64,000 bases of DNA. Source: Vicinamibacterales bacterium (GTDB lineage Bacteria; Acidobacteriota; Vicinamibacteria; Vicinamibacterales; UBA8438). A program made the position numbers and the translations under genes. Numbering within the stretch: position 1 is the stretch's first letter; each line of letters begins with the position of its first letter. The DNA is taken from contig CBDCEY010000008.1 of the NCBI GenBank assembly GCA_965215895.1, positions 995,086-1,059,085 of the forward strand. Reading direction: 5' to 3'. The notes beneath the pieces were generated by a model that worked only from the letters and a program-made list of their open reading frames with translations, made no database searches and was not told the DNA's origin. Positions 5,343-22,786 of the stretch are shown piece after piece.

Positions 5343-7649
5343 ATGACAACGCTGTCGGATCACAGGCATGACGTTGGACGCGTGGTCGCCGTGAGCGTGG
5401 CGCTCGGAAGCGCGTGGATCATGGGTACGATCGCCGCGTCGGCGCAGAGCGCCTTTCAGATCGAAGAAGCCACCATCGGCGATATTCAGCGCGCGATCCG
5501 GCAGGGCGAGACGACCTGCGTGCAGGTGGTGGAAGCCTATGTCGAGCGTGCGAGGGCCTACAACGGCATCTGCACGCAGCTCGTCACCGCGGACGGTGGA
5601 CGGGTTGCGCCCGGTCCGGGCGCGGTCCGGGCCGGCGCCCCGATCGAGTTCCCCGCCGCCACCGTGCCGGTGCGCGATATTCTGCCGGACTACGACGACT
5701 ACCGCGGGTTGCCGATAGAGCTCGGCCGCATGGAGGCCACGCGGTCCGACCCCGGCGTCCAGCAGCAGTACGGCATGGTCGTCGGCATGAAGGACGCGGG
5801 CCAGCTGAATGCGCTGAGCACGCTCAACCTCCGTGGGGAGCGATCGGTGACCTGTCAGGCGGAATGCGATGCGCACCCGTCGGACGGCGCGCTGCCCGCG
5901 CATTGCCCCGCCGCATGCGAGGCGTTTCGACGACAGCCCGACGCGCTCGAGAGAGCCGCCGAGCTCGACGCCCTGTACGGCAGGAATCCCGACCTCGATC
6001 GGATGCCGATGTACTGCGCCGCGCTCTCGTTCAAGGACGTCTTCGATACGACCGACATGCGGACGACGGGCGGGGCCGACACCGCCTACACGATGGATGC
6101 TCCACCGCGGGACGCGACGGTCGTCGCCGAGCTGCGGGCCAAGGGCGCCATCATCTACGCCAAGGCCAACCTGTCCGAGTACAACGCCGGCGGCGGGAAC
6201 CCGGGGGGCGCCGTTGCCGGATCGCGGACGTTCGGCGCGGGCGTCTCTCGCAGCAGTTGGGCCGGCGCCTCGTGCAGTGTCTACGATACGGCCCGCGAAC
6301 CCGGTGGTTCGAGCTCCGGGTCAGCCGTCTCGGTCGGCGCGAACCTCGTCACCTGCTCGATCTGCGAGGAGACCGGCGGGTCGTGCCGGCAACCGGCCTG
6401 GCGAAACGGCGTCGTCGGCCTCGTGACGACCAAGGGGCTCGTGCCGTATGGCGGATCGATCGGCGTCGAGCCCTACCTCGACCGGGGGGGCATCCACTGC
6501 CGCACGGTCGAGGACGCGGGCAGGGTCCTCGACGCGCTCGGGAACCCCGGCGGCGACTTCTACGATCCGCGCGACATCTACAGCGCACTCCCCCGCGCGC
6601 TGATCCCCGAGGCGCCCTACGCGAGCTTCGTCGTCGATGAAGAGACCGTCGACGCCAGGCCGCTCGCCGGCGTGCGCATCGGTGTGGTCCGGGAGTACAT
6701 GGTCAAGCACACCGACAACGACGCCGCGATGAGCGATCTCGTCGATGAAGAGATCCTTCGCGTGCTGCGTGACGAGCTCGGCGCGGAGATCGTCGAATCG
6801 TCCGATCCGGCGTATCCGGACGACCCGTCGATCCCGAACATGGCGTACGACTTTCACCGGGCGATAGCCGAGATCCTGCCCGTCCACATGCCGGAGTACA
6901 TCCAGGCCAGGGACGCCGGCGGCGGGTACCGGTTCGCGGTGCCCGGCCACGACGTGACCAGCCGCGACTATCTCGTGCGGGCGGCCGAAGGCGCGGCGCC
7001 GCTCTCGGCCGACCTGAACCTTCGCAGCATCAACAGCTCGCCGCCGACCTTGAGCTTCAGCTTTCACCTCGCCCAGTACCTGATGCGCCGCGGGGATGCC
7101 ACGGTGACCGACTGGACGAGCCTCAACGCGAACTCGAAGTACTACAACGAGCGGCGCGCGGTGGCGATGCGCAATTGGGAGGAAGCCCGCAACATCGTCT
7201 CGGAGGGCATCACGCGGCGCGTGAAGATGCGGGACGTCATGCGGCTCGTTCTGCTCAACGTGCTGCACCGGAACGATATCGACGTGCTGGTCAACCCCAC
7301 GATCACGGTGCCCCCGGTGCGAATCGGATACGCGGGCGAGCCGTCCGTCGAGAACCGTCCGACCGGCCGGTTTCCCACGAGCGCCAACCTCGGCATTCCG
7401 GAGATCACGGTGCCGGCCGGCTTCAATCGAATCGTCTACGATCCCGAGTACGTGCTGAACGAGGACAGGGACGACTACGACAACGTCACGGGCAGCCGGC
7501 GGACGCAGCTCGATGCCGGGCTCCCGGTCGGCATCTCGTTCTGGGCGGGACCCGGCGACGAGCCGCTCGTCCTGCGCGTCGCGTCGGCCTACGAGGCGGC
7601 AACCCGCCATCGCCGGCCGCCGCCGGACTTCGGGCCTGTCGGTCGATGA
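5343..7649 (+). CDS. amidase-signature family amidase, secreted
   Basis: AGGAG lies 6 nt before ATG 5343 (track start 5310 lacks a spaced RBS). Amidase signature GGSSSGSAVSVGANL. Signal-like N-terminus ending AASAQS. Confidence 0.8.
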   Translation: MTTLSDHRHDVGRVVAVSVALGSAWIMGTIAASAQSAFQIEEATIGDIQRAIRQGETTCVQVVEAYVERARAYNGICTQLVTADGGRVAPGPGAVRAGAPIEFPAATVPVRDILPDYDDYRGLPIELGRMEATRSDPGVQQQYGMVVGMKDAGQLNALSTLNLRGERSVTCQAECDAHPSDGALPAHCPAACEAFRRQPDALERAAELDALYGRNPDLDRMPMYCAALSFKDVFDTTDMRTTGGADTAYTMDAPPRDATVVAELRAKGAIIYAKANLSEYNAGGGNPGGAVAGSRTFGAGVSRSSWAGASCSVYDTAREPGGSSSGSAVSVGANLVTCSICEETGGSCRQPAWRNGVVGLVTTKGLVPYGGSIGVEPYLDRGGIHCRTVEDAGRVLDALGNPGGDFYDPRDIYSALPRALIPEAPYASFVVDEETVDARPLAGVRIGVVREYMVKHTDNDAAMSDLVDEEILRVLRDELGAEIVESSDPAYPDDPSIPNMAYDFHRAIAEILPVHMPEYIQARDAGGGYRFAVPGHDVTSRDYLVRAAEGAAPLSADLNLRSINSSPPTLSFSFHLAQYLMRRGDATVTDWTSLNANSKYYNERRAVAMRNWEEARNIVSEGITRRVKMRDVMRLVLLNVLHRNDIDVLVNPTITVPPVRIGYAGEPSVENRPTGRFPTSANLGIPEITVPAGFNRIVYDPEYVLNEDRDDYDNVTGSRRTQLDAGLPVGISFWAGPGDEPLVLRVASAYEAATRHRRPPPDFGPVGR

Positions 7650-7830
7650 TGCCGGCGCGCGGGGAGGTGCTCCGAGCCGCTGAAGCTGATCCGAACCGGC
7701 GCCGGCTCGTCGGTCGATGATACGGGCGCGCGAGGAGGCGGTCCGCCGATGCCGTGCGTCGCCTGCCGGCGGACGGTCACCTGCCGACGGTCGATGAGGT
7801 CGGCGCGCGAGGAGGCGCCCCGCCGGCGAC
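7641..7830 (+). repeat. three degenerate tandem units, each starting GGTCGATGA..GGCGCGCGAGGAGG
   Basis: GGTCGATGA occurs at 7641, 7712 and 7789 (spacing 71 and 77 bp). Each is followed by (C/G)GGCGCGCG(A/G)GGAGG. The paralogous spacer has one unit only (11037). Confidence 0.6.
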
Positions 7831-7989
7831 GAGCCGAGGGGCAGCGTCACTGCGGCGTTCGGCTGCATATCAGACGACATGCGCCCTCCTCACGCCTTGT
7901 GAGCCGGGCGCTTCGCGCCCGCCATGGGCTGCTGCTGCTGATAGAATCGCCGGCCTGCGCGCCGGACGAACTCGGAACCGGAGAGTCTG

Positions 7990-9000
7990 ATGCCGACGAA
8001 GCCGCTCGCGTTCGTGCTCGCCATCGCGTTCGCCGCGACCGCCGGCGCGCAGCAGGCCGCGTTCGATCGCCTGTCGCCCGACGTCCTCGACGCCGTGCCG
8101 CCGTCGGCGCGCGTCACGGGCGAGCCCGGCGCCATGACGATCCGACGGACGTCGTGCCGCACGGCGCCGATGAACGAGATCCGGCGGCGCATCGTCGACC
8201 TGGCGGTGCAGGAGTGGGCGTTCTTCGGGTTCATCGTCGTGGACCAGACGACCGTCGAGGCGTCCGGACCCGGCCAGCCTCGCCGGCGCCGTCGGCGGCG
8301 GCCGGGCCCGGCCGAGTCGGCCCGCGTGGCCGGCTCGATCGCCGGCTACTGGACGGTCACGCCGCAGGGCGGCTGGATCCTCGACGCCCAGAACGACGCT
8401 TGGCGCGGACCGCGCGGCGTCGGCTCGCGCTGGCGCTACCCGTGGTCGGCGGCCTTCGTGTCGTGGGTGATGTGCGAGGCCGGCCTCGGCGACGCCTCTC
8501 TCTTCCAGCGCGCCGTGGCCCATCACGTCTACATCGACCAGGCCATCCGTGCCCGCGGCGCCGACACGCCGGCGGCGGCGTTCACGGCCCACGACGTCGG
8601 CGAGGCGCCGGTCGCGCCGGGCGATCTGCTGTGCAGCGCGCGCCGGCCCGCCTACCGGTCGATCGCCCAGCGGCGGCGCCAGATGGGCGTCGGCGCCCGG
8701 ACCCACTGCGACGTCGTCGTGAAGGTGGAGCCGTCCCGCCGCCGCATTCTCGCCATCGGCGGCAACGTGCGCGGCGCGGTGAGCCTGAAGCTGCTCCCGG
8801 CGGCCGATGGACCCGACGGCAGTCTCCGGCCGCTCCCGGGCCGGCGGCGCATATTCGCCCACCTCAAGCTGCGCGCCCCGTCGATCGCGGTCGACGCGCT
8901 CGACCACACACCCACGATGCACGCGGTCCAGTGCGACGACTTTCCACTTCCGCTTCAGGCAGCCGCCGCTCGCCTCGCCGGTCGTGCCGCCAGATGCTGA
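7990..9000 (+). CDS. DUF2272-like secreted protein, paralogue 1
   Basis: GGAG RBS 6 nt upstream. Signal peptide LAIAFAATAGAQQ. Blocks EWAFFG, YPWSAAFVSWVMCEAG, HCDVVVKV..AIGGNVRGAVS match my recollection of DUF2272. Confidence 0.65.
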   Translation: MPTKPLAFVLAIAFAATAGAQQAAFDRLSPDVLDAVPPSARVTGEPGAMTIRRTSCRTAPMNEIRRRIVDLAVQEWAFFGFIVVDQTTVEASGPGQPRRRRRRRPGPAESARVAGSIAGYWTVTPQGGWILDAQNDAWRGPRGVGSRWRYPWSAAFVSWVMCEAGLGDASLFQRAVAHHVYIDQAIRARGADTPAAAFTAHDVGEAPVAPGDLLCSARRPAYRSIAQRRRQMGVGARTHCDVVVKVEPSRRRILAIGGNVRGAVSLKLLPAADGPDGSLRPLPGRRRIFAHLKLRAPSIAVDALDHTPTMHAVQCDDFPLPLQAAAARLAGRAARC

Positions 9001-9014
9001 ACCGAGCGTAACAG

Positions 9015-9035
9015 AATACAAGGGGGGATTGTATT
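9015..9035 (+). terminator. possible hairpin after DUF2272 copy 1
   Basis: AATACAA-GGGGGGA-TTGTATT (7 bp stem, 7 nt loop) followed by T. The stem is AT-rich, so this is a weak call. Confidence 0.25.
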
Positions 9036-9403
9036 TGGTGAGTGCGCATCGCCCGGCCGGGTAGCGCCGAAAGCGCCTCTCACGGCTACGAACGCGAGGA
9101 TTGGAGGGGGGCACCCGGATTCCGGTGCGGTCTGGCTGAATTGGAGACCGGCGCCGGAACCTGAGTGGGACGCGGGCCTAATATCGCCGTTCCACCGGTG
9201 CTGGGTCGATTGGGTCGACGGGATCCATCTCCCATTTTCCCTTGGGAGACCTGTGAACAGCGACTTTCCGAGTCCTGAACCAGGAATCTGGCTTTGCCTT
9301 TCGCCTCAAGAACCGCGTGTTGCATGGCTTTAGGTCTGTGACTCGGAAGACGCTCAGAACGTCTCGAACGATTCTGCCAACACCAAGAAGATCCGGCACG
9401 GCA

Positions 9404-9679
9404 TTACCCCTCCAGATCGTAGACGCTGACATCGCCGTCAGCGGTGCTGTGCCTGACTGCAACGAACCACCAGTCGCCTACCCTAAACGGGTACGGACGA
9501 TGGAGATCCATGTTTGCTTCCGTGCACTCAACACCGCCGTTTGGGGTCGGCGCGAATACGGAAGGCTCGGCACCAATAAACTGTTCCGGGAACCTCAAGG
9601 CCTGTGAGCTGACTGCACCTACTTGTTGAGCCGGATACGACATCAACCCATCGACGGAGCCGATTTCAACAGTAATCAC
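9404..9679 (-). CDS. hypothetical protein (91 aa), third gene of a small minus-strand operon
   Basis: GTG start overlaps the upstream stop (GTGA), suggesting translational coupling. Lies in the lower-G+C patch. No family recognised. Confidence 0.35.
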   Translation of the reverse strand: MITVEIGSVDGLMSYPAQQVGAVSSQALRFPEQFIGAEPSVFAPTPNGGVECTEANMDLHRPYPFRVGDWWFVAVRHSTADGDVSVYDLEG

Positions 9680-10038
9680 TCTTTGGGGTCTCCCTGGCCT
9701 ATGTGCTGAGCAAGCACTTGCAGCAACTGAACCGCAACTGGCATGGACAGCACCACCCGGGTAACGTCCTGGACTTCAAGCCCCGTTTCGCTCAGACGAA
9801 CCGCATGATCGTGCTGTTCTTGAGGCGTGCCAACCATCAGGACCGGCGAAACTTGACCGAAGGTCAACGAAACCAGGGTGTCTCGGATCTCAACCACGAA
9901 CTGATTCGAGTACCGCAAGGTCGGTGGCGGATTCGGCCACGTAAAGGGAATCGTGACGGCTTTCGGCTCATCCATCCGGTCACCTGTTGTCAAGACAATA
10001 CCGTTCCGCGCCGGCTCGCTCGACCGTGCGTCGGTCAT
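9676..10038 (-). CDS. hypothetical protein (120 aa), DUF3467-like pattern
   Basis: ATG at 10038 (internal Met of track ORF 9676-10134). YSNQFVVEIRDTLVSLTFGQVSP....VTRVVLSMPVAVQLLQVL resembles the DUF3467 pattern as I recall it. Confidence 0.45.
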   Translation of the reverse strand: MTDARSSEPARNGIVLTTGDRMDEPKAVTIPFTWPNPPPTLRYSNQFVVEIRDTLVSLTFGQVSPVLMVGTPQEQHDHAVRLSETGLEVQDVTRVVLSMPVAVQLLQVLAQHIGQGDPKE

Positions 10039-10081
10039 GACTGCGACACCGTCGCCCCGGCGGGCGCGCTGACGTGGCGTG

Positions 10082-10243
10082 TCAGTGGACGACGCGGCGG
10101 GAATGCGGTCCGAACATGGCCTGAGCGAACACATGGGGTGTTGCGTCGATCCTCATGTCCTCTTCCAGCTCGGCCTTCGTCGGCTCGTGCCGGAGATCGC
10201 TCTTGGGCGGCTTAGGACCGGATTCCTGACCGGCCTTCGCCAT
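10082..10243 (-). CDS. hypothetical small protein (53 aa)
   Basis: ATG 10243 preceded by GGAG 7 nt upstream and an extended -10 element. Sequence MAKAGQESGPKPPKSDLRHEPTKAELEEDMRIDATP. No family recognised. Confidence 0.35.
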   Translation of the reverse strand: MAKAGQESGPKPPKSDLRHEPTKAELEEDMRIDATPHVFAQAMFGPHSRRVVH

Positions 10244-10268
10244 CGTTTCGCTCCAGCGCCCTAACCCC

Positions 10269-10277
10269 AGTATACCA
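10269..10277 (-). promoter_or_regulatory. extended -10 promoter element (TGGTATACT) for the small minus-strand operon
   Basis: The minus strand reads TGG-TATACT about 26 nt upstream of ATG 10243. No good -35, which is usual for an extended -10. Confidence 0.3.
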
Positions 10278-10307
10278 GACCATGTCCCGCTGGTAGGGTA
10301 TGCTCGG

Positions 10308-10656
10308 ATCCCGAGCGGGGTGACGTGATACGGCCGCGGGCCGTCGACCGTGGCCTCCGTCTCCGCGTCGCGCGCGAGCGAGACGGAGCTGCCTCCAGCA
10401 CGAGGGCGGCGGCCTGCCTTCGCTTCTCCGGCGTGATGAGGTTCAGGGTGCCCCTCTCGTCCTCGGCGCCCCACCGGCCCTAGTTCGTCAGCTCCTGCTT
10501 CCACCGCTCGACGTCCGCCTGCGCCACCCGCCGTCCGTCACCTGCCTGGTCCCGTTCCTGCTGGAAGCCCCGAGAGCCGACGGTTTGCGCGAACAGCACC
10601 AACGTGACGATGCCCGCCAGTGTGACGATGCCGGCCAGACTCTTGGTCGTCCCCAT
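10308..10656 (-). pseudogene. 5' fragment of a cyclase-family gene (paralogous to 26659-27699)
   Basis: Aligns by eye with 27355-27699, including the upstream leader to about 10725. TGG to TAG nonsense at 10480-10482 (LTN* versus LTNWGRWG). Truncated at about 10305. Confidence 0.8.
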
Positions 10657-10827
10657 CGGTCCTCTCCCAGGTATCGCCTTCGTCGTCGATCCGGCTCCGC
10701 GTCGAACCGGGCGCTGGCAGGCTGGCTTGATGTCGTCGATGGCAGAACCGAAGTCGCTCACCTGCCCTACCCAATGAGGCGCAGAATCCCGATGGTCAAC
10801 GTGGCCGTCGCAATCACGGCCCCGACC

Positions 10828-11036
10828 ATCCCGAGTACGTGCTGAACGAGGACGGGGACGGCTACGACAACGTCACGGGCCGCCGGCGGACGGAGCTCGA
10901 CGCCGCGCTCCCGGTCGGCATCTCGTTCTGGGCGGGGCCCGGCGACAAGCCGCTCGTCCTGCGCGTCGCGTCGGCCTACGAGGCGGCGACGAAGCATCGC
11001 CGCCCGCCGCCGGACTTCGGGCCTGTCGGTCGATGA
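10828..11036 (+). pseudogene. 3' fragment of amidase gene (copy of 7441-7649)
   Basis: Encodes YVLNEDGDGYDNVTGRRRTELDAALPVGISFWAGPGDKPLVLRVASAYEAATKHRRPPPDFGPVGR, near-identical to the amidase C-terminus. No upstream coding part. Confidence 0.85.
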
Positions 11037-11128
11037 TGCCGGCGCGCGAGGAGGTGCTCCGAGTGGGCTGCTGGTGATGATAGGATCGCCGGCCTCCGCG
11101 CCGGACGAACTCGGAATCGGAGAGTCTG

Positions 11129-12139
11129 ATGCCGACGAAGCCGCTCACGTTGGTGCTCGCCATCGCGTTCGCCGCGACCGTCGGCGCGCAGCAGGCCGCG
11201 CTCGACCGCCTGTCGCCCGACGTCCTCGACGCCGTGCCGCCGTCGGCGCGCGTCACGGGCGAGCCCGGCGCCATGACGATCCGACGGACGTCGTGCCGCA
11301 CGGCGCCGATGAACGAGATCCGGCGGCGCATCGTCGACTTGGCGGTGCAGGAGTGGGCGTTCTTCGGGTTCATCGTCGTGGACCAGACGACCGTCGAGGC
11401 GTCCGGACCCGGCCAGCCTCGCCGGCGCCGTCGGCGGCGGCCGGGCCCGGCCGAGTCGGCCCGCGTGGCCGGCTCGATCGCCGGCTACTGGACGGTCACG
11501 CCGCAGGGCGGCTGGATCCTCGACGCCCAGGACGACGCCTGGCGCGGGCCGCGCGGCGTCGCCTCGCGCTGGCGCTACCCGTGGTCGGCGGCCTTCGTGT
11601 CGTGGGTGATGTGCGAGGCCGGCCTCGGCGACGCCTCTCTCTTCCAGCGCGCCGTGGCCCATCACGTCTACATCGACCAGGCCATCCGTGCCCGCGGCGC
11701 CGACACGCCGGCCGCGGCGTTCGCGGCCTACGACGTCGGCGAGGCGCCGGTCGCACCTAGGGATCTGCTGTGCAGCGCGCGCCGACCCGCGTACCGGTCC
11801 ATCGCCGAGCGGCGGCGCCAGATGGGCGTCGGCGCCCGCACCCACTGCGACATCGTGGTGAAGGTGGATCCCTCCCGCCGCCGCATTCTCGCCATCGGCG
11901 GCAACGTGCGCGGCGCGGTGAGCCTGAAGCTGCTCCCGGCGGCCGATGGCCCCGACGGCAGTCTCCGCCCGCTCGCGGGCCGGCGGCGGATCTTCGCCCA
12001 CCTCAAGCTGCGCGCCCCGTCGATCGCGGCCGACGCATTGGACCACACGCCCACGATGCGCGCGGTCCGGTGCGACGACTTTCCGCTGCCGCCCCAGGCA
12101 GCCGCCGCCCGCCTCGCCGGCCGCGCCGCCCGCTGCTGA
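11129..12139 (+). CDS. DUF2272-like secreted protein, paralogue 2
   Basis: 336 aa, colinear with 7990-9000. By manual alignment 17 of 336 residues differ. Confidence 0.65.
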   Translation: MPTKPLTLVLAIAFAATVGAQQAALDRLSPDVLDAVPPSARVTGEPGAMTIRRTSCRTAPMNEIRRRIVDLAVQEWAFFGFIVVDQTTVEASGPGQPRRRRRRRPGPAESARVAGSIAGYWTVTPQGGWILDAQDDAWRGPRGVASRWRYPWSAAFVSWVMCEAGLGDASLFQRAVAHHVYIDQAIRARGADTPAAAFAAYDVGEAPVAPRDLLCSARRPAYRSIAERRRQMGVGARTHCDIVVKVDPSRRRILAIGGNVRGAVSLKLLPAADGPDGSLRPLAGRRRIFAHLKLRAPSIAADALDHTPTMRAVRCDDFPLPPQAAAARLAGRAARC

Positions 12140-12389
12140 ACCAAGTGCAAGCGTCGCGTCTCGAAAGACGCTGTACCCCGCGCCCTTGAGGACTTCGACG
12201 GCCAGAGCCTGCGCCGGGCGGTCGACGAGTTCGTCGTCGCGAACGTCGCTACGAGAGCCTGACCCCGAACTTCGTCTATCATGACGCCCGCGAGGACAAG
12301 GCCGGCGCTCGCCGGGCGGCCTTGCCGGGAGGGCGTCTGGATGTCCAGTTTCGCCTCCCGCGCCGCTGGATGAGGTACGAACGGACGTC

Positions 12390-15300
12390 ATGACCGTTGA
12401 CTCCAAGGGCCGCGAGCTCTTCATCGTCGACAACAGTGTCTCCGGCTGGACCGGGCTCCGGTACTTGGAGGAGTGGTCCGGCATCGCGAAGGCGTTCGAC
12501 ATCGCGACCGGATACTTCGAGATCGGCGCCCTGCTCTCCCTCGACGGCAAATGGCAGGGGCTCGACAAGATCCGGATCCTGATGGGCACGGAGATCACCC
12601 ATCGAACTCGGAAAGCCATTCTCGTAGCGGTTCGGGCGCAAGCGCTCGACAGGCTCGACGAAAGCATCGAGGACGACAAGGAGCCGAACCCCTTCCTGCA
12701 CGGGGTCCTGGCGATTCTCGCCGCGCTCCGCTCCGGGCAGATCGAATGCCGTGTCTACGACAAGGACAAGTTCCACGCCAAGGCCTACATCACCCATGCC
12801 AAGCTCGAGGTCGTCGGCGCTCAGGCGCTGGTGGGCTCCAGCAACTTCACGCGGCCGGGTCTGACGAAGAACATCGAACTGAACGTCCAGATCCAGAGCG
12901 CGCGCGAGGTCGCGCAGCTCCAGGAGTGGTTCGAGACCCACTGGAACGGCGCTAGCGAGGTCAGCGAGGCCGTCATCGAGACGATCTCGCGCCATACGCA
13001 CCTGTATTCGCCGTTCGACGTCTACGCGAAGGCCCTGCAGCAGTTCTTCCGGGGGCACGAGCTGACTGCGACCGAGTGGGACGAGAATCGGTCGCGCATG
13101 TTCCCGTACCTCGATCGCTATCAGAAGGAGGCGTACTGGGCGCTCATGAAGATCGCCCGGCAGCACGGCGGTGGGTTCCTCTGTGACGGCGTGGGTCTTG
13201 GCAAGACCTTCGTCGGTCTGATGCTGATAGAGCGGCTCATCCTTCACGAGGGCAAGCGCGTCGTGCTGTTCGCGCCGAAGGCGGCCAAGGAGGCCGTGTG
13301 GGAGCCCCACCTGCGTCGGTGGCTTCCGCACATCGGCGGCGTCGGGGGCGGCGCGGACTTCAGCAACCTGGCCGTCTTCAGCCACACCGACTTCGGACGC
13401 AAGGGGGACTTCCCGGAGCGCTTCCAACGCATTGCCGAACTCGCCGATGTCGTCGTCATCGATGAGGCGCACCACTTCCGCAATCCGGGCCGCCAGGGTG
13501 ACCCCGACCAGGGAATTGAACCGTCGCGCTACTACCGCCTGTTCGAGCTGCTCGACAACACGGAACGCCCCAAGACCCTGTTCATGCTGACGGCCACCCC
13601 GATCAACAACCGCCTGAGCGACTTCCGCCACATGACCGAGCTCTTCACGCGTCGCGACGAGGCCTACTTCGCGCGCACGATCGGCGTGAACAACCTGCGG
13701 GCGCACTTCAACCAGATGGAAAAGACGCTTCGCAGCCGTGTGGGGCAGGACGCGGCCGATGCCGCGGAGCACGTCACCGAGGTCCAGGAGATCCTCCTAA
13801 CCGACGAGATCTTCCGCCAGCTCGTCGTCCAGCGTAGCCGCGCGTACGCCCGCGAGAGCCAGACTCGGGAGTACGGCAAAGCAGCCGCTTTCCCCGAGCG
13901 GAAGGACCCGCAGGTGGCGGCGTACTCGATCCGCAAGACCTACGGGCGGATGCTCGAGCTGTTCGAGAAGGCCTTCGCGAAACAGAGCCCGCTCTTCACG
14001 CTCCCGATGTACTACCCCCTGCATTGGTACAGGGGGCCGAACCAGAACATCGACGCGTTCGAGGAGAACCGCCAGAAGCAGGTGGTCGGCTTGATCCGGA
14101 CCAACTACCTCAAGCGCTTCGAGAGCTCCGTCGCCGCCTTCGAGCTCTCCTGCGACCGCCTCCTCCAGAAGCTGCTCGCCTTCCTCCACGTTCACAGCGA
14201 GAGCGACGCCGAGAAGAAGCGCCTCGAGAGGTGGAAGGCTCAGAAAGCCGACGTCCTGGGCCACGTCTCCCACCGCCAGCTCGAGCTCTGGGGCGAGGAA
14301 GGCGAGGAGGCGGACGACGAAGACGTCGTTCCCCAGGAGATGCTCGACACGGTCGAGCGCCTCGACCGGGCCGAGTACGACGTCGAGGAGATGATGTCCG
14401 AGACCTTCCTCGACCTCGACCAGATCGTGGAGTTCCTGGACGAAGCCCGGAAGTTCGAGCCGAAGCACGACGACAAGCTCCAGAAGCTCATCCGCCTGCT
14501 CAAGTCGAAGGCGCTGGCCGACCAGAAGATCCTGATCTTCAGCGAGTTCGCCGACACGGCCCGCTACCTCAAGCGTCAACTGGACGAGGCCCGTATCGAG
14601 GGCATCGAGCAGGTGGACAGTGCCACGAAGAAGAACCGTGCAGACGTGATCCAGCGCTTCGCCCCCTATTACAACGGCCTCTCGTCCCCGGAGCTCGCCG
14701 AACATGGCCGCGAGGAAATCCGCGTCCTGATTTCTACCGATGTCCTCTCCGAGGGTCTCAACCTCCAGGACGCCTCGCGGATGATGAACTACGACATCCA
14801 CTGGAACCCGGTGCGCCTCATGCAGCGCATCGGCCGGGTGGACCGGCGCATGAGTCCCGAGATCGAGAAACGGATCGTCGCCGACAATCCCGAGGCGGCC
14901 GTCTCCCGCGGCAAGGTCTGGTTCTGGAACTTTCTCCCGCCCGAGGAGCTGAACGAGATCCTCACGCTCTACACGAAGGTCACGCAGAAGACGCTCCTGA
15001 TCTCCAAGACGCTCGGCATCGAGGGCAAGAAGCTCCTCACCCCGGAGGACGACTACGAGGCGCTGAAGGAATTTCACCACGCCTACGAGGGCACGCGCAC
15101 GTCCGTGGAGGACATGCACCTCGCGTATCAGGCGCTGCTCCAGGCCGACCCGGAGCTGGAGGCGCGCCTCGCTCGCTTCCCCGGCGCAATCTTCAGCGGG
15201 GGCAAGCGCCCGGCGAAGGGCGTGCGCGGTGTCTTCTTCTGCTACGCGCTTCCCGCCCTCGACAAGGAGAAGAACGATTTCACCGAGGAGGCCGGCACCA

Positions 15301-15539
15301 CCCGCTGGTACCTTTACGATCTCGACCGCGAGACCATCCTCCAAGAGCCGGGCGAGATCGTCGCGAGCAACCGCTCGAAGCCCGAGACGCCCCGGCGCTG
15401 CACCACGGAGGAGAAGACGCTCCTCGACATCCGCAAGCGGATCGAGAAGCACATCAAGAACGGCTACCTGAAGCGCGTGGATGCCCCGGTCGGCGTCAAG
15501 CCGCGGCTGCGCTGCTGGATGGAGTTGAACGAGGGCTGA
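12390..15539 (+). CDS. PLD-nuclease / SNF2-family helicase fusion protein (1049 aa)
   Basis: N-terminal single HKD motif KFHAKAYITH...LVGSSNFT (about 12768-12865). SNF2 core: DGVGLGKT (I), VVVIDEAHHFRN (II), LTATPINN (III), LISTDVLSEGLNLQD and HWNPVRLMQRIGRVDR (V/VI). Confidence 0.85.
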   Translation: MTVDSKGRELFIVDNSVSGWTGLRYLEEWSGIAKAFDIATGYFEIGALLSLDGKWQGLDKIRILMGTEITHRTRKAILVAVRAQALDRLDESIEDDKEPNPFLHGVLAILAALRSGQIECRVYDKDKFHAKAYITHAKLEVVGAQALVGSSNFTRPGLTKNIELNVQIQSAREVAQLQEWFETHWNGASEVSEAVIETISRHTHLYSPFDVYAKALQQFFRGHELTATEWDENRSRMFPYLDRYQKEAYWALMKIARQHGGGFLCDGVGLGKTFVGLMLIERLILHEGKRVVLFAPKAAKEAVWEPHLRRWLPHIGGVGGGADFSNLAVFSHTDFGRKGDFPERFQRIAELADVVVIDEAHHFRNPGRQGDPDQGIEPSRYYRLFELLDNTERPKTLFMLTATPINNRLSDFRHMTELFTRRDEAYFARTIGVNNLRAHFNQMEKTLRSRVGQDAADAAEHVTEVQEILLTDEIFRQLVVQRSRAYARESQTREYGKAAAFPERKDPQVAAYSIRKTYGRMLELFEKAFAKQSPLFTLPMYYPLHWYRGPNQNIDAFEENRQKQVVGLIRTNYLKRFESSVAAFELSCDRLLQKLLAFLHVHSESDAEKKRLERWKAQKADVLGHVSHRQLELWGEEGEEADDEDVVPQEMLDTVERLDRAEYDVEEMMSETFLDLDQIVEFLDEARKFEPKHDDKLQKLIRLLKSKALADQKILIFSEFADTARYLKRQLDEARIEGIEQVDSATKKNRADVIQRFAPYYNGLSSPELAEHGREEIRVLISTDVLSEGLNLQDASRMMNYDIHWNPVRLMQRIGRVDRRMSPEIEKRIVADNPEAAVSRGKVWFWNFLPPEELNEILTLYTKVTQKTLLISKTLGIEGKKLLTPEDDYEALKEFHHAYEGTRTSVEDMHLAYQALLQADPELEARLARFPGAIFSGGKRPAKGVRGVFFCYALPALDKEKNDFTEEAGTTRWYLYDLDRETILQEPGEIVASNRSKPETPRRCTTEEKTLLDIRKRIEKHIKNGYLKRVDAPVGVKPRLRCWMELNEG

Positions 15540-15543
15540 GCCG

Positions 15544-18543
15544 ATGCCGACCGACCACCGCGAAAGTCTCGCCCGCATCCGGAGCTTCCCCCAGCTCGTC
15601 GCCTACCTGCGCGACGAGCTCGCCTGGCCGATCGAGTCGGACGACTTTGAGGAGCTGACCTTCGAGTACGACCCGCAGGAGGAGCTCGGGATCGACCCGA
15701 AGAACGCGGCCAAGATCAAGCACATCAAGCGCCTGCGCCCGCTCGTGCCGGGCCAGCCCTGGGGCATCTTCTTCGTCAAGTTCGAGCCGAAGCGCCTGCC
15801 CGTGGTGGCGCTGCGCCGCATCCTGGGCCGGGTCGGGCTCAAGAAGCGCGCCTCCGCCAACAAGTCCGAGCGCCAAGCCTGGGCCGCCGACGACCTGCTC
15901 TTCGTGTCCAACTACGGCGAGGGCGAGGAGCGCCGCATCGCCTTCGCCCACTTCTCGAAGTCCCGGGACGGCCACGACCTGCCCACCCTCAAGGTGCTCG
16001 GCTGGGACAACCTCGACACGCCGCTCCACCTCGACGCCGTGGCCAGCGACCTGAGCGACCACCTCACTTGGCCCGAGGACGAGAACGACCCCGACGCCTG
16101 GCGCGAGCGCTGGCGCGCCGCGTTCACACTGCGCCACCGAGAGGTCATCAGCACCTCGAAGCAGCTCTCGGAGCGCCTGGCCGAGCTCGCCAGCGCGATC
16201 CGCGACCGCATCCGGACCGCACTCGCCATCGAGACCGAGACCGGCCAGCTCACCAAGCTCATGAAGGCGTTCCAGACCGCGCTCGTCCACGACCTGGACG
16301 AGACCGGCTTCGCCGACATGTACGCCCAGACCATCGCATACGGGCTGCTCTCGGCACGCATTACCGACCCCGAGCGGCGCACGGCTGACGACCTCGCCGC
16401 CCACATGCGAACGAACCCGTTCTTGAAGGAGCTGATGGAGACCTTCCTCCACGTGGGCGGGCGCCGCGGTAAGGCCGGCGGGCCAGGCATCGACTTCGAC
16501 GAGCTGGGCGTCTCCGACGTGGTGGAGCTACTCGACCAAACCAAGATGGAGAAGGTGGTCATCGACTTCGGCGACCGCAACCCCCAGGAAGACCCGGTCA
16601 TTCACTTCTACGAGCACTTCCTGGCCGCCTTCGACAAGAAGCAGAAGGTGAGCCGCGGCGTCTTTTATACCCCGCGTCCGGTGGTCTCCTACATCGTGCG
16701 CTCGCTGGACGAGCTCTTGCGCAGCGAGTTCGGCCTAACTGACGGCCTCGCGGACACCACCACCTGGGGCGAGATGGCGAAGCGCTATAAGGAACTGAAG
16801 ATCCCGGAGGGCACTCCCCTCGGGCAGGCCTTCGTTCAGATCCTCGACCCGGCCACCGGTACAGGCACCTTCCTGGTCGAGGTGATGGACCTCATCCACA
16901 AGACGATGGTCGAGAAGTGGAAGGCCCAGGGCCACGGCGAGCAGAAGATCCAGGCGCTCTGGAATGAGTATGTCCCGAAACACCTGCTGCCACGCCTGCA
17001 CGGGTACGAGCTCCTGATGGCCCCGTACGCCATCGCGCACCTCAAGATCGGCCTCAAGCTCTACGAGACCGGCTACGGCTTCGAGAGCGACGAGCGCGCG
17101 CGGGTGTACCTGACGAATGCGCTCGAGCCGCCGGGCGACGGGCAGCTCACGCTCGACTTCCTGCCGGCGCTCGCGCACGAGGCCGAGGCGGTTAACGAGA
17201 TCAAGCGGAAGCAGCGATTCACTGCCATTATTGGGAATCCACCGTATGCCAAGAGCTCATCCAACCGGTCGGATGTGGCCGAATCCCTTGTCTCAGAGTA
17301 CAAACGCCTAGTGTACGGAGAGACTAACGTACAACCGCTTTCCGACGACTATGTGAAGTTCGTTGCTTTCGCGTTCAAGGTTGCTGCCCCACACACAGCC
17401 GTTGTCGGATTGATTACCAACCGCTCCTATCTGGAAGGCCTGATCCACCGAGGTATGAGGTTCGTCCTCGGCCGGGATTGCTCGCGGATCCAAGTAATCG
17501 ACCTTCACGGGGACTCCAACGTGGGCGAGCGACCGCCGGAGGGAACAGCGAACGAGAACATCTTCGACATTCAGCAGGGCGTCGCGATCTCACTCTTCTT
17601 GCGATCACTGCCGCGACAACCACCCGTTAGCCTCGTGTTGCACAGACATCTTTGGGGCACTCGGCAGGAGAAATACGGTGCTCTGGCAGCTAGTGAGCTT
17701 CACACCGGGATGGGCGCTCTTCCCCTTTCGGAGCCGTACTGGTTCTTCGCTCCCAAAGATCTTGGGACACAGCACGAGCAAGTCTTGTGGGCCAGCGTTG
17801 ATTCGCTCTTCCACGTGAGCGGTATGGGAGTGAAGTCACGACGCGACCATTTCTTGCTTGACAAGAGCAAGACATCACTCCGTGCACGAATGTCCAAGCT
17901 GGCGCGCTGCGGAGACGCTGAGCGACTTCGGGATGACCTCCAGGTCAAAGACAACCCCCAGTGGTCCCTCGCCGCTATGCGTGACCTGCTCCAACGCGAG
18001 GGAGTCGATCGTCGCATCTTCCCCATCGCGTACCGGCCCTTTGACACCCGATTTGTCTGGTACCACCGAGAGGCGATCGAGAGGGGCGATGCGCGGTGGC
18101 CAGTGATGAAGCACGTTCTCTCGGAAGGCTTGTCGCTGCTTACAGCGCGTCAGTCGGCAAATCACGATTTCACTTCGGTCTTCGTTGCACGCGGGCTGTC
18201 GGAAATGAAGACTGCGGAGAGCACAAGGGGTTCGTATGTTTTCCCAGCTCGCAAGCGGGCCGATGTCGGGCGGTTCCAGGCGGGCGATGAGGTCTCGAAC
18301 ATCCGTAGGGCCACATTTGGGCCGCCGCTAGCAAGGCGTAAACCGGAAGAGCTCGTTGGCTACATCTACGCGATCCTCCACTCTCCTGAGTATCGGCGTC
18401 GATACGCAGGTGCGCTTCGCATTGAGTTCCCTCGGATTCCAACAGGCTGTGCGTGGTCGCTAGCGGATGAGCTTTGCCGACTCGGTTGGGAACTCGTTGC
18501 ACTGCATCTCATAGAGTCCCCTAAGGACACTGACGCAAATTAA
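15544..18543 (+). pseudogene. N6-adenine DNA methyltransferase with type-ISP-like specificity region, 5' part, truncated by IS insertion
   Basis: Starts 4 nt after the helicase stop. SAM motif ILDPATGTGTFL (about 16845-16875) and IIGNPPYA (about 17230-17250). The frame runs into the IS at 18526 and terminates 6 codons later at TAA 18541-18543. Confidence 0.85.
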
Positions 18544-19818
18544 CTTGCCATCTTTTGCGATCTGTGGTCTATTTGGGTTCTATGCAGCGCAACGTGGAAC
18601 TGGAGGCCACGATTGTCGCCAAGTACGCGGCGGTGTCGCCGGTATTGGATGAGCGCAGTCGCCGCCGGTGGGCGGCTGCCGAGTCTGTGGCCATCGGCTA
18701 TGGCGGGGATGCGCTGGTGTCGTCGGCCACGGGTCTGGCCCGGGAGACGCTCCGGAAGGGCCGCCGGGAAATCACGCAAGGCGGGACGCCGTCGGGTCGC
18801 ATACGACGCCCGGGAGCGGGGCGGCCCCGTCTCGAACAGAGGCAGCCTGGCCTCCTGGCCGCCCTGGAAGGGCTGGTGGATCCGCTGACGCGCGGCGACC
18901 CAACGTCTCCGCTGCGCTGGACATGCAAGAGTCGGGCGAAGCTCGCCTCGGGGCTGGCACAACAAGGGTGGCGAGTGAGTTCGACGACCGTCGGCCGGTT
19001 GCTACATCAACTGGGGTACCGGCTGCAATCGGCCCGTAAACGTCAGGAGGGGACCAGCCACCCGGACCGTAACGCGCAGTTCGAGCACATCAATGCGACC
19101 GCGGACTCGTTTCTGGCCGAGGGGCAGCCGGTGATCTCGGTCGACACGAAGAAGAAGGAGCTGGTCGGGAACTTCAAGAATGGCGGGCGGGAATGGCAGC
19201 CGAAGGGCACGCCGCCGGCGGTGCTGGTCCATGATTTCCCGACGGACGCGGAGGGCAAGGCGATTCCGTATGGCGTCTACGACATGGCGCGCAACGAAGC
19301 TTGGGTGAGCGTGGGACGGGACCACGACACCCCGGCCTTCGCGGTGGCGTCAATTCGTCATTGGTGGCAGCAAATGGGCTGTGACGCCTACCCCGACGCC
19401 ACGGCCCTGTTCATCACGGCGGATGCGGGTGGGAGCAACGGGTATCGGTTGCGCGCCTGGAAGCACGAGCTTCAACAGTTGGCCGACGAGACCAGGCTGA
19501 CCATCCACGTGAGTCACTTTCCACCCGGCACCAGCAAATGGAACAAGATCGAGCACCGTCTCTTCTGTCACATCACGGCGAACTGGCGAGGCACCCCGTT
19601 GACGACGTATGAGACCATCGTCGACCGCATCGGGAACACCCGGACGGAGACCGGGCTCTGGGTCCGGGCCGAACTCAACGCCGGCCAGTATCCCACGGGC
19701 GTCAGGGTGACCAAGGAGGAGATGGACGCAATCGCGCTGGTCCGCGACGGGTTTCATGGGGAATGGAATTACAAACTGCTACCCCGATGAAGTTGGCAAG
19801 TTTATATCGATCACTGTC
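18526..19818 (+). mobile_element. ISAzo13-family insertion sequence (~1.29 kb)
   Basis: Imperfect terminal inverted repeats GACACTGACGCAAATTAACTTGCCA / TGGCAAGTTTATATCGATCACTGTC (21 of 28 positions match). Flanking direct repeat CTAAG at 18521-18525 and 19819-19823 (TAA core if the ends are drawn 1 nt differently). Single transposase ORF. Confidence 0.85.
18582..19790 (+). CDS. ISAzo13-family (Rhodopirellula-type DDE) transposase
   Basis: LDERSRRRWAAAESVAIGYGG N-terminus, ISVDTKKKELVGNFKNGGREW, ITADAGGSNG, HFPPGTSKWNKIEHRLF, FHGEWNY tail. Alternative start 18555. Confidence 0.8.
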   Translation: MQRNVELEATIVAKYAAVSPVLDERSRRRWAAAESVAIGYGGDALVSSATGLARETLRKGRREITQGGTPSGRIRRPGAGRPRLEQRQPGLLAALEGLVDPLTRGDPTSPLRWTCKSRAKLASGLAQQGWRVSSTTVGRLLHQLGYRLQSARKRQEGTSHPDRNAQFEHINATADSFLAEGQPVISVDTKKKELVGNFKNGGREWQPKGTPPAVLVHDFPTDAEGKAIPYGVYDMARNEAWVSVGRDHDTPAFAVASIRHWWQQMGCDAYPDATALFITADAGGSNGYRLRAWKHELQQLADETRLTIHVSHFPPGTSKWNKIEHRLFCHITANWRGTPLTTYETIVDRIGNTRTETGLWVRAELNAGQYPTGVRVTKEEMDAIALVRDGFHGEWNYKLLPR

Positions 19819-19823
19819 CTAAG

Positions 19824-20282: not shown

Positions 20283-20388
20283 ACGTGGCCGCGACCGACG
20301 GCCCCTGCCGTCACGAGGAGCCGACCCGCGATCCCCTGCCTCCGGGCGGGGCCGACCGCTCTAGTTCAGCCCCAGCCGCAACTCGGGT

Positions 20389-20418: not shown

Positions 20419-20423
20419 TGTAC

Positions 20424-22769: not shown

Positions 22770-22786
22770 TCAGGGGAGATTCTGTT

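Follow-up and report, generated by a model that had tools for sequence, protein, structure and literature searches.

We analyzed a 64,000-nt stretch of DNA (hereafter the window; positions 995,086-1,059,085 of contig CBDCEY010000008.1, assembly GCA_965215895.1) from a Vicinamibacterales bacterium (Acidobacteriota); the host is described as a soil acidobacterium. The locus contains, in this order, an amidase gene, a DUF2272 gene (D1), a small cargo, a remnant of a cyclase gene (C1), a short segment X′ that is joined to an amidase 3′ stub, a second DUF2272 gene (D2), a defense island, and an intact cyclase gene (C2) (Table 1). Self-BLASTN of the window identified exactly three direct-repeat blocks: the amidase 3′ end and its stub (7438-7676 and 10825-11063; 239 bp, 93.3% identity), the two DUF2272 genes (7925-9006 and 11064-12145; 1082 bp, 95.1%), and the cyclase 5′ part with its leader (10307-10704 and 27349-27746; 402 columns, 89.1%). 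The two copies are collinear and in direct orientation. In the same comparison, no homology was found between 9007-10306 and 12146-26658. The region is a direct (tandem) segmental duplication beside a defense-island hotspot. These results bear out the initial annotation, which had proposed three homology blocks in this order, a tandem segmental duplication with one novel join (J1, located here), and non-homologous DNA between DUF2272 and the cyclase in the two copies.

Table 1. Positions of the features of the duplicated locus within the window.
Feature	Position	Strand	Basis or remark
Resident full-length amidase	5343..7649	+	Pfam PF01425, E 1e-45; Pfam span given 5310-7649
Three degenerate copies of a ~50-nt motif (7637, 7708, 7785)	7637..7834	+	Repeat family D1
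DUF2272 copy 1 (D1)	7990..9000	+	Pfam PF10030
Gene-conversion tract D1/D2	8068..8573, partner 11207-11712	.	Identity and bootstrap
Low-G+C cargo	9007..10306	-	59.7% G+C vs 68.9% for the window
cargoB and cargoA (real start M54)	9404-9679; 9676-9975	-	Conserved two-gene module
Deletion junction J2 (GATC), truncating C1 at the cargo edge	10307..10310	.	Comparison of L005, L091, and cyclase parent
Cyclase 5′ stub (C1 remnant)	10311..10715	-	Alignment to 27349-27746; translations
X′, last 19 codons of a CCDC90-like (DUF1640) gene and downstream DNA	10712..10824	-	Stop 10767-10769
Duplication join J1 (X′ / amidase codon ~700)	10821..10824	.	Three-way comparison of window, amidase parent, and X in L015/L018
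Amidase 3′ stub and one terminal motif copy	10825..11063	+	Self-BLASTN block 1
DUF2272 copy 2 (D2), intact in the window	11129..12139	+	Pfam PF10030
Remnant of the ancestral DUF2272/cyclase intergenic region	12146..12270	.	Collinear with single-copy L006, L009
Defense island, 14.4 kb	12271..26650	+	Pfam, PADLOC; ends by comparison with L006/L009
Intact cyclase (C2) with native upstream region	26659..27699	-	Pfam PF04199; Pfam span given 26659-27948(-)

In contigs identical to the window, gene calling gave the amidase a length of 768 aa. The parent of its stub is the last 239 bp of the resident amidase block, and the stub has few private substitutions and a reading frame that is intact up to the stop at 11036. 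A ~50-nt motif that spans the amidase stop codon has four matches in the window (none expected), of which copy 2 has a single one, at 11028. The 248 bp between the amidase and DUF2272 in copy 1 (7677-7924) are missing from copy 2, and only in copy 2 are the self-BLAST blocks contiguous. The proteins encoded by D1 and D2 differ at 17 of 336 residues, which reproduces an earlier count, and 26 further codon differences are synonymous. In two strain haplotypes (L001 and L003), D2 is broken by an insertion sequence (IS) with a CTAG target duplication at 11757-11760.

The cargo is found only in copy 1 and, as had been noticed before, is low in G+C. The DNA between the repeats consists of the two-gene cargo and pseudogene fragments, with no restriction-modification genes recognized. 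The cargo proteins have six homologues (87-120 aa, 64-99% identity), and cargoA and cargoB were called as a pair in other contigs as well; in L087/L088, the pair has different flanks and 84% nucleotide identity. The cargo genes have no match in Pfam, NCBIfam, or PADLOC, and a Foldseek search of their products against PDB gave nothing (AlphaFold2 pLDDT only 52 and 68).

Join J1 and the fate of the extra cyclase

Segment X′ is 83% identical to positions 17716-17831 of L015 and 80% identical to positions 19650-19778 of L018, and in these related species its counterpart occupies the space between the cyclase and the next gene, on the upstream side of the cyclase. The CCDC90-like protein of L015 matches PF07798 (E 9e-14), and a tblastn search located the CCDC90-like match at X′ (E 2e-6) and at no second site in the window. 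Both parents of J1 are identifiable, namely, the amidase from 7438 onward (proximal) and the CCDC90-like gene (distal). The microhomology at the join is 2-4 nt: ATCC is shared (4 nt), or only CC if the ancestral amidase read GACCCC as in all other species. The join formed at this short homology and not at long repeats (IS, rRNA). The initial annotation had described a join that fuses a cyclase 5′ fragment to an amidase 3′ fragment, with the cyclase leader extending toward the amidase stub. Both points require revision: the 3′ end of the CCDC90-like gene is fused to the amidase instead, and positions 10705-10824 (120 bp) are not leader and are foreign to both window parents. The cyclase itself is not cut by the duplication join, since it is encoded on the minus strand.

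The cyclase stub contains codons 1-117 (10656 down to 10306), with a leader of about 50-60 nt beyond it (10657-10715 on the plus strand). The TGG-to-TAG nonsense change reported earlier is present (W59* at 10480-10482) and, in the translations, is followed by a frameshift. At the position of J2, L005 and L091 go on as CTCGGATCGCCAAG and the cyclase parent reads GGTGATCCCGAG. This comparison shows that the stub was cut by a later deletion at 10307-10310, not by the duplication join. Different pieces of the extra cyclase are kept in three lineages: the equivalent of 27349-27746 in the window, those of 26659-26772 and 27270-27355 in L091, and the last 14 nt in L005. Because these pieces differ, the duplicated unit would have held a whole cyclase, the middle of which (equivalent to 26773-27269) is preserved in none of the three, and the content that first filled the slot is likewise lost. 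The junction alignments show that the extra cyclase was destroyed independently in each lineage by short-homology deletions. The C2 region is collinear with L007 over 3.7 kb (92%), and tblastn of the window found no CCDC90-like gene or X remnant adjoining C2.

Three of the five junctions connect one GATC site to another, with a single site kept, namely, J2 of the window, that of L005/L090, and deletion 2 of L091, in which the X-side GATC is deduced from L018. The probability of this pattern is about 1.6e-6 for GATC specifically and 0.006 for any 4-mer. GATC is also found at 2 of 26 other repeat ends (0.16 expected) and at none of 16 background indels. We hypothesize that the decay junctions could stem from restriction cutting and religation at GATC. 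The frequency of GATC is 2.2 times the composition expectation; the site is therefore not avoided, which argues against long-term exposure to restriction of unmethylated GATC.

Exchange between copies, proposed spread among lineages, and the island hotspot

Within the tract given in Table 1, D1 and D2 are 99.0% identical, compared with 93.0% in the 5′ block and 91.2% in the 3′ block, and orthologues are only 92-94% identical over the same stretch. D1 and D2 are sisters in this tract with a bootstrap of 1.0, compared with ≤0.02 in the flanks. These patterns show that the middle of the two genes was homogenized by gene conversion. The D1 3′ parts of the window, L005, and L091 group together (bootstrap 0.9), and outside the conversion tract the two copies of L091 are 87.2% identical. 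Third codon positions differ by 12-15% between species.

L091 and L092, from other samples and with an amidase 91% identical to that of the window, carry a J1 sequence identical to the one in the window. The join is found in this second species-level lineage and, in a decayed form, in a third, with a different deletion of the extra cyclase in each. In L005/L090, collinearity with the window extends through amidase, D1, and cargo as far as 10310, beyond which lies a truncated second DUF2272. Because J1 is lost in L005, the case for a common origin of L005 and the window lies in the shared position of the cargo and in the overall architecture. A 23-nt probe across J1 had no match in the JGI metagenome collection, and the distribution is thus known from ENA and Logan assemblies only. 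A complete, undecayed duplication unit was found at no locus, nor was the genome in which the join arose; L089, a candidate for such a unit, was rejected as it is 100% identical to L091.

Between the window and L091, the amidase stub is 99.2% identical (2 of 239 positions differ), compared with 87.8% for the same 239 bp of the resident amidase. The cargo is 97-100% identical and positions 10805-11254 are 96-99% identical, while the values for the whole amidase and for DUF5916 are 91.0% and 89.8%, respectively. Between L005 and L091, D1 with the cargo is 97.4% identical and the middle of D2 98-100%, compared with 93.2-93.4% for the flanking genes. Both boundaries of these high-identity tracts fall within DUF2272, one in D1 and the other in D2. 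The D2 3′ ends are lineage-specific, as are the islands that follow them, and the D2 end of L005 is 99.2% identical to that of L010. Between lineages, flanking core genes share only 88-93% identity, compared with 97-100% for the inner block, from which we infer transfer of this block between species by homologous recombination, with crossovers within the two DUF2272 copies. A single crossover pair does not account for the complex mosaic along DUF2272. The initial annotation had concluded from the 17 of 336 differing residues and one nonsense codon that the duplication is not very recent. Such dating is unsafe given the gene conversion in the middle and an inner block that is 97-100% identical between species with core genes 7-12% apart; with movement of the block between species, the divergence between copies would not date the event.

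Single-copy relatives define the ancestral arrangement of the interval behind D2. The amidase 3′ end and DUF2272 of L006 and L009 are single-copy and collinear with copy 2, and the equivalent of 12146-12270 runs straight into the cyclase 3′ end; this comparison yielded both the island ends and the intergenic remnant. The island genes encode an HKD-nuclease/SNF2 helicase, a LeoA-like GTPase, a PDC-S68 RecD-like helicase, and a Type IIG/ISP-like methylase that is interrupted by an ISAzo13-family IS. The left part of this island also follows DUF2272 in L010 and L014. About 20 related Vicinamibacterales species have the gene order DUF5916-amidase-DUF2272 ... cyclase-R1. The DUF2272/cyclase interval is 3.9-8.8 kb in 11 species and about 14.5 kb in the window, with differing gene content: HKD-SNF2 and Type IIG in the window, L010, and L014 (PDC-S68 being added in the window), Gabija (GajA/GajB) in L006, HerA and a methylase in L005, and a tricorn protease in place of defense genes in outer-clade species. 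The conserved flanks and variable content across these species agree with the earlier reading of the junction as a replacement hotspot, and the comparison shows the native interval behind D2 to be a hotspot of defense-island replacement.

Proposed history and alternative explanations

The best explanation, to which we assign a probability of roughly 0.6, combines a single duplication, horizontal spread, piecemeal loss of the cyclase, gene conversion, and a hotspot. The duplication would have arisen once, through the illegitimate join J1 that linked the CCDC90-like 3′ end to the 3′ part of the amidase, in a genome that, judging from the anatomy, was ordered amidase-DUF2272-(cargo)-cyclase-X. 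The duplicated unit would have comprised a complete DUF2272 and a complete cyclase. The part that begins within D1 and ends within D2 would then have spread by homologous recombination to at least three species-level Vicinamibacterales lineages: a fragment with a DUF2272 copy at either end could enter a single-copy DUF2272 through two ordinary crossovers and thereby restore the duplicated arrangement. The lineage of the window was probably on the receiving side. The later events that the comparisons show are the loss of the extra cyclase by short-homology deletion separately in each lineage, the exchange of sequence between the middles of D1 and D2, and the replacement of defense islands in the native DUF2272/cyclase interval behind D2.

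The data are metagenomic and strain variants share one sample (L001 and L004 are both from ERZ25068966), as a mis-assembly merging two alleles or strains would need. However, four long-read contigs, obtained from three ENA samples and including a circular one of 7.86 Mb, show the same structure at 99.7-100% identity to the window, with differences in IS insertions, the same junction is found in a different species from two further samples, and the unique sequence X′ at the junctions is found nowhere else in the window. This answers the concern of the initial annotation, and such an artifact is hardly conceivable. Another reading is that J1 is a secondary deletion junction in a formerly larger duplication that included at least a whole second amidase. 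The slight decay of the amidase stub would fit, every other junction of the structure is a deletion with 0-5 nt of homology, and the same neighborhood has a 2.3-kb DUF5916 duplication in L012 and a 447-bp amidase 3′ stub in L024. Yet no lineage keeps more than 239 bp of the second amidase, always the same 239 bp, the junction is identical in the window and L091, and recent horizontal spread explains the low stub decay equally well, which leaves a secondary origin of J1 improbable.

Alternatively, the tandem duplication could be old and formed in situ, and have reached the window, L005, and L091 lineages by vertical descent from their common ancestor, with loss through inter-copy recombination in L006, L007, and L009 and with later exchange that only refreshed the inner block. 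Tandem duplications are expected to collapse easily, so these losses would cost little. The copies differ by 7-13% outside the conversion tract, which is similar to or deeper than the interspecies divergence, the three lineages cluster as a clade in their D1 3′ ends, and the high inter-lineage identity could reflect inner-block replacement among old carriers rather than de novo duplication in recipients. However, a non-functional stub that is far more similar between the window and L091 than the functional amidase ends is impossible by vertical descent alone, so horizontal exchange is needed in any case. Moreover, the amidase of L091 is further from that of the window than those of the duplication-free L006/L007 (about 93%), and the native cyclase of the window lacks an adjoining X gene. 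We regard vertical inheritance as rather unlikely. Much less credible is a site-specific integrative element, either cargo or island, that targets the DUF2272/cyclase 3′ end and has the repeats as attachment sites. Partial 3′-end copies of DUF2272 or cyclase do flank inserts in several relatives (94 bp in L007, 195 bp in L010, 215 bp at 99% in L011, and 64 and 112 bp in L006), and the island lies between the two copies of an imperfect 12-16-nt direct repeat (GAGCCTGACCCCGAAC at 12255-12270 and GAGCCAGACAAC at ~26633-26644). Against this, scans of the cargo and the large island ORFs detected no integrase or recombinase domain (IS elements are present), the window has no tRNA gene, and the repeats range from 64 bp to >1 kb, unlike a fixed attachment site. 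Their variable lengths fit the published "insertion with long target duplication" (PMC2853133).

Comparison with known systems

The locus is a new, well-documented example of known genome dynamics and not a new kind of system. In laboratory genetics of Salmonella and E. coli, a donor fragment that carries a join point can recreate the duplication in a recipient by homologous recombination. A join-carrying fragment is proposed to have acted in the same way here; unlike the laboratory work, this is a natural case among species 7-12% apart and is deduced from identity patterns only.

Microhomology-mediated (illegitimate) tandem duplication with a novel join has been studied in bacteria and other organisms (PMC11111574; bioRxiv 10.64898/2026.02.28.708716). 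The window resembles these cases in its two direct copies, its one novel join with 2-4 nt of homology, and its later instability through gene conversion and loss of parts. It differs in that the join is common to different species and looks horizontally spread, the copies hold different DNA in the same slot, and the duplication persists and decays piecemeal instead of collapsing.

Insertion with long target duplication has been described for restriction-modification genes with repeats of 30-400 bp (PMC2853133). Likewise, relative to the single-copy L006 and L009, the window has foreign DNA between direct copies that are far longer than a transposon footprint, and this insert has no transposase or integrase. 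However, the repeat in the window is 1.3 kb (amidase end and whole DUF2272) and is traceable to a tandem duplication join, and the insert has no recognizable restriction-modification genes.

Core defense hotspots without obvious mobility genes include cDHS1/2 of Pseudomonas aeruginosa (PMC10250203) and hotspots of E. coli (PMC10121019), and transfer by homologous recombination through the flanks has been proposed for those of P. aeruginosa (PMC10250203). The DUF2272/cyclase interval resembles them in that its flanking core genes are conserved from species to species, its content varies greatly, and different defense systems occupy one slot; no integrase was found in the ORFs scanned. Unlike these hotspots, it belongs to Acidobacteriota (Vicinamibacterales) and is flanked by DUF2272 and a cyclase-family gene, its slot is filled by a tricorn protease in outer-clade species, and one of its flanks is itself duplicated.

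Structure of the duplicated locus and its joins

Self-comparison of the window revealed three direct-repeat blocks, of the amidase end, DUF2272, and the cyclase, in the order proposed by the initial annotation (see the table). The source organism is an uncultured member of Vicinamibacterales (Acidobacteriota). The same structure was recovered in four contigs assembled from long-read metagenomes of three samples, all 99.7-100% identical to the window and one of them circular (7.86 Mb), so that, to the extent that assemblies can tell, it is not a mis-assembly. These contigs are set apart only by IS insertions, which differ among strain haplotypes of the species. In L001 (13771-15463) and L003 (13771-16332), an IS of the DDE_Tnp_1_4 type, with CTAG as its 4-bp target duplication (window 11757-11760), disrupts the second DUF2272 copy (D2). 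The HKD-SNF2 gene is disrupted by a Tn5-like element in L002 (about 15032-17368), and L004, which shares its sample with L001, is intact as in the window.

Several details of the initial annotation were reproduced, namely, 17 of 336 residues differing between the DUF2272 proteins, a TGG-to-TAG change in the cyclase stub (10480-10482, followed by a frameshift), and a low G+C content of the cargo (59.7% vs 68.9% for the window). Within the cargo, two small minus-strand genes overlap, one coding for 99 aa from M54 (cargoA) and the other for 91 aa (cargoB). This pair is conserved in a handful of short contigs with 64-99% protein identity, in some of them with other flanks. Neither gene matched a Pfam, NCBIfam, or PADLOC family, their AlphaFold2 models are of low confidence (pLDDT 52 and 68), and a Foldseek search of PDB with the cargoB model (pLDDT 68) gave no match below E = 1. 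Rfam gave nothing credible on 7000-13000 (E-value mode) or on the whole window (gathering thresholds). Tandem Repeats Finder reported nothing in the amidase/DUF2272 spacer; motif copies there were detected by a separate repeat search.

Because the cyclase is on the minus strand, the 5' end and leader of its extra copy point right, toward the amidase 3' stub. Homology to the intact cyclase stops at 10704 (about 10715 at lower identity) and amidase homology starts at 10825; the stretch in between (X') has no other match within the window. X' matches, at 83 and 80% identity, the DNA that separates the cyclase from the next gene in the related species L015 and L018. On the minus strand, X' represents the last 19 codons (ending in VGAVIATATLTIGILRLIG and a stop) of a gene for a 105-residue protein with a coiled coil and a C-terminal membrane helix (CCDC90-like/DUF1640; PF07798, E = 9e-14). 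Based on this match, the duplication join J1 (10821-10824) links the 3' end of the CCDC90-like gene to amidase codon ~700, rather than the cyclase to the amidase as first annotated. The microhomology at J1 is ATCC, or just CC if the ancestral amidase read GACCCC as in all other species. The CCDC90-like gene is absent beside the intact cyclase in the window and in L007, and a 23-nt probe spanning J1 had 0 matches among JGI metagenome contigs. Small accessory genes are scattered through this neighborhood in relatives: in L018 the cyclase and the CCDC90-like gene are separated by a fused nucleotidyltransferase-HEPN gene (18666-19631), and distant CCDC90-like homologs occur in L010 (11208-11456, in the slot) and L014 (5229-5399, upstream of the amidase).

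Three lineages have this structure: the window, L005/L090, and L091/L092/L089. L005/L090 is about 92.6% identical to the window. Its amidase, first DUF2272 copy (D1), and cargo are collinear with the window as far as the equivalent of 10310, beyond which lie ~130 bp of other DNA and the final 14 nt of a cyclase; its second DUF2272 lacks the first ~145 nt and precedes a different island. L091/L092/L089, with an amidase 91% identical to that of the window, has amidase-D1-cargo plus the same ~130 bp, 115 bp of the cyclase 3' end, 86 bp of its interior (equivalent to 27270-27355), and the final 12 nt of X', which lead into an identical J1, the amidase stub, and a complete D2. The window retains the 5' part of the extra cyclase. 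These different remnants indicate that the duplicated unit probably once contained a whole cyclase that was eroded differently in each lineage. The cyclase stub, earlier attributed to the join, is the product of a later deletion in the window (J2, 10307-10310). L089 was considered as an undecayed precursor with an intact extra cyclase and ruled out, being 100% identical to L091; P0128 (L093) was rejected as another stub, being a frameshifted full-length amidase. The amidase fragment of L094 (P0129) is a more complex case.

Coordinates of features in the window and in related loci (L-numbers)
Feature	Position or sequence	Detail
Amidase gene	window 5343-7649	Pfam
DUF2272 genes (two)	window 7990-9000 and 11129-12139	Pfam
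Helicase, methylase, and transposase genes	window, between D2 and cyclase	Pfam
Cyclase-family gene	window 26659-27699	minus strand; Pfam
Amidase end block	window 7438-7676 and 10825-11063	direct; 93.3% identity
DUF2272 block	window 7925-9006 and 11064-12145	direct; 95.1% identity
Cyclase block	window 10307-10704 and 27349-27746	direct; 89.1% identity
Old intergenic DNA	window 12146-12270	comparison with single-copy L006 and L009
Island	window 12271 to about 26650	comparison with single-copy L006 and L009
Tricorn-protease 3' copies	L013 13323-14377/15522-16573; L015 13096-13567/15295-15766; L018 13251-14694/15359-16801; L024 13091-14000/15289-16198	
Amidase stub	L024 6226-6670/9272-9709	447 bp
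Duplicated DUF5916	L012 5236-7513/7663-9919	no amidase
DUF2272 3' fragments	L007 10950-11043/13258-13350; L010 10823-11017/11597-11791	
Cyclase 3' fragment	L011 17250-17464/19033-19247	99%
~110-nt element	window 44556-44672 and 50687-50806; L005 2668-2777; L010 7443-7552	intergenic in window
Window J2	cargo CTCG-GATC-GCC + cyclase GGT-GATC-CCG	
L005/L090 deletion	cyclase GGC-GATC-GGG + D2 GAC-GATC-CGA	
L091 deletion 2	same cyclase GATC as L005/L090 deletion + X'	X' site is GATC in L018, now AATC in window

A defense-island hotspot between DUF2272 and the cyclase

The order DUF5916-amidase-DUF2272 ... cyclase-R1 is common to about 20 related species. Among loci with both flanks, the DUF2272-cyclase interval is 3.9-8.8 kb, and it is 14.5 kb in the window. 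Outer-clade species have a tricorn-protease gene and variable extras in this interval, and inner-clade species have defense genes. The window island encodes an HKD-nuclease/SNF2 helicase (PADLOC C3a139) and a Type IIG/ISP-like methylase-nuclease, together with a LeoA-like GTPase and PDC-S68 (E = 0); the HKD-SNF2 and Type IIG pair is also found in L010 and L014, and the slot holds Gabija in L006 and HerA with a methylase in L005. The island ends bear an imperfect 12-16-nt direct repeat, and neither an integrase domain (domain scans of the cargo and large island ORFs) nor a tRNA gene (tRNA search of the window) was found. This interval is a newly mapped defense-island hotspot in Vicinamibacterales, an abundant uncultured soil group. 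The roughly 20 comparable genomes allow its flanks to serve for collecting further defense systems from soil metagenomes.

Some genes of the window island are modified. The Type IIG/ISP-like methylase gene is split by an ISAzo13-family transposase gene (PF07592, E = 3e-139; 18544-19800), a 163-codon ORF past the IS (19791-20282) matches the C-terminal end (positions 1013-1075 of 1096) of the PADLOC Type IIG model for this gene, and the gene is uninterrupted in L010. The PDC-S68 RecD-like ORF fits its profile only to residue ~1276 of 1323, with a tail of ~44 codons (26603-26737) that runs over the island end into the cyclase 3' end in antisense, giving a convergent overlap of 79 bp (26659-26737).

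Related loci have further rearrangements. L006 carries two cyclase 3'-end fragments (64 and 112 bp; 11174-11235 and 17365-17476) with two kinds of downstream sequence, as well as left-end remnants of the HKD-SNF2 island that comprise ~80 bp from the start of the HKD-SNF2 gene, which shows that successive islands overwrote one another there. Four outer-clade species have a second, partial copy of the tricorn-protease 3' region directly before the cyclase, about 2.2 kb downstream from the first copy; the two are 95-97% identical over 0.5-1.4 kb and represent another segmental duplication in this interval. L020 and L025 lack it. A full gene followed by an insert and a 3' fragment of that gene is seen in many relatives. 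In addition, a conserved ~110-nt element (core GTCYGCGCCGTAGAACGGCG..GGAGGAGGCGCAGACT..CTGGAGGGTKGGTTGGG, stem GTCTGCGCC/GGCGCAGAC; no Rfam match) occurs twice in intergenic DNA of the window. In L005 and L010 it directly precedes the amidase, a position that it does not occupy in the window.

Probable exchange of the inner block between species

The inner block, running from inside D1 to inside D2, is far more similar between lineages than its surroundings. The amidase stubs of the window and L091 have 2 differences in 239 bp (99.2%), whereas the same 239 bp of the resident amidases are 87.8% identical; the cargo is 97-100% and 10805-11254 is 96-99% identical, compared with 91.0% for the whole amidase and 89.8% for DUF5916. 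Between L005 and L091, D1 plus cargo are 97.4% and the D2 middle 98-100% identical, with flanking genes at 93.2-93.4%. Since a pseudogene cannot evolve fifteen times slower than its functional parent, these identities argue that the inner block must have been exchanged recently between these species. This comparison of stub and resident amidase between genomes is the informative test. The stub at first seemed too little decayed, an estimate that was no longer significant after calibration on third-position divergence. Codon-position patterns did not separate in situ pseudogene decay from import, the cyclase N-terminus being under little constraint even among orthologs.

The high-identity tracts terminate within D1 and within D2; the final ~140 nt of D2 and all that follows are lineage-specific, and the D2 end of L005, for instance, shares 99.2% identity with the single-copy DUF2272 of L010. 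Judging from these identity patterns, the simplest route may be one in which a DNA fragment beginning in D1 and ending in D2 recombines with a single-copy DUF2272 by two ordinary crossovers, which would insert the cargo, extra cyclase, and stub and so recreate the duplication in the recipient. If a one-unit circle had entered by a single Campbell-type crossover, donor-type tracts should meet at one point in DUF2272, a pattern to which the observed mosaic is no simple fit. An old duplication could instead have been inherited by all three lineages, with only its inner part swapped later. J1, being identical in the window and L091, arose once under horizontal spread and vertical inheritance alike, and we regard inheritance with a later swap as unlikely, though carrying a tangible share of the probability. 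The horizontal spread, if confirmed, would illustrate concretely how accessory DNA gets into a hotspot without integrases, a matter left open in work on core defense hotspots (PMC10250203). As the cargo pair is the only intact gene content that the block adds besides the extra DUF2272, it is the obvious candidate for what is selected, if the spread is selected.

The initial annotation also took the divergence of the copies as a measure of age, a use that the much higher similarity of the inner block than of flanking core genes between lineages does not permit. D1 and D2 differ at 26 sites in the first 382 aligned bp, 5 in 8068-8573, and 41 in the last 436 bp. Their middle is 99.0% identical, compared with 92-94% between orthologs, and the copies are sisters with a bootstrap of 1.0 there and ≤0.02 in the flanking blocks. 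Outside this conversion tract the copies differ by 7-13%, about as much as the species of the star-like clade do from one another (12-15% pairwise at third codon positions). The L091 copies are 87.2% identical overall, with no conversion-like tract. Paralog divergence misleads in both directions: conversion gives the copies a younger look, and interspecies exchange an older one. Of the initial model, the direct duplication and the hotspot outline stand, whereas the fusion partners at the join, the origin of the stub, and the meaning of the divergence do not.

GATC sites at junctions and comparison with known systems

Three of the five junctions of this structure are GATC-to-GATC joins that keep one site (see the table). 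With a chance of 0.0054 that a 4-nt microhomology is GATC (window 4-mer frequencies), this gives P = 1.6e-6 for GATC and 0.006 for any 4-mer, the latter being the fairer figure because the pattern was noticed post hoc. Among other partial-duplication ends in related loci, 2 of 26 fall exactly at GATC (0.16 expected, P = 0.012). GATC-to-GATC joins account for none of 16 ordinary indels in conserved flanks. With 6.3 GATC sites per kb, 2.2x the composition expectation, the genome shows no avoidance of this 4-mer; the whole window has a strong skew among palindromic 4-mers, with CTAG at 0.09x, TTAA at 0.08x, and TCGA at 3.4x the expectation. Cleavage at GATC followed by religation is one reading of this small sample, and a lead that, if it holds in more data, would provide rare natural evidence of site-specific cleavage and religation shaping bacterial chromosomes.

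Two linked proposals can be made here. The duplicated core gene would provide built-in homology arms that make D1-cargo-...-D2 an integrase-free mobile cassette, by which an unknown two-gene module is carried between species and the duplication recreated at each landing place. The eroding deletions would be scars of GATC cleavage and religation, natural footprints of self-restriction beside a defense-island hotspot. We assign this pair a probability of roughly 0.2.

All of the observations fall under known processes, namely, tandem duplication through an illegitimate join, gene conversion, decay by deletion, swapping of accessory DNA by way of homologous flanks, and defense hotspots. Two features are noteworthy: the apparent spread between species of a duplication in which the two gene copies act as arms for recombination, and the deletions that join GATC to GATC. 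The locus matches the published picture of core defense hotspots with conserved flanking genes (PMC10250203, PMC10121019), and the gene-insert-3' fragment arrangements of its relatives resemble the "insertion with long target duplication" (PMC2853133).
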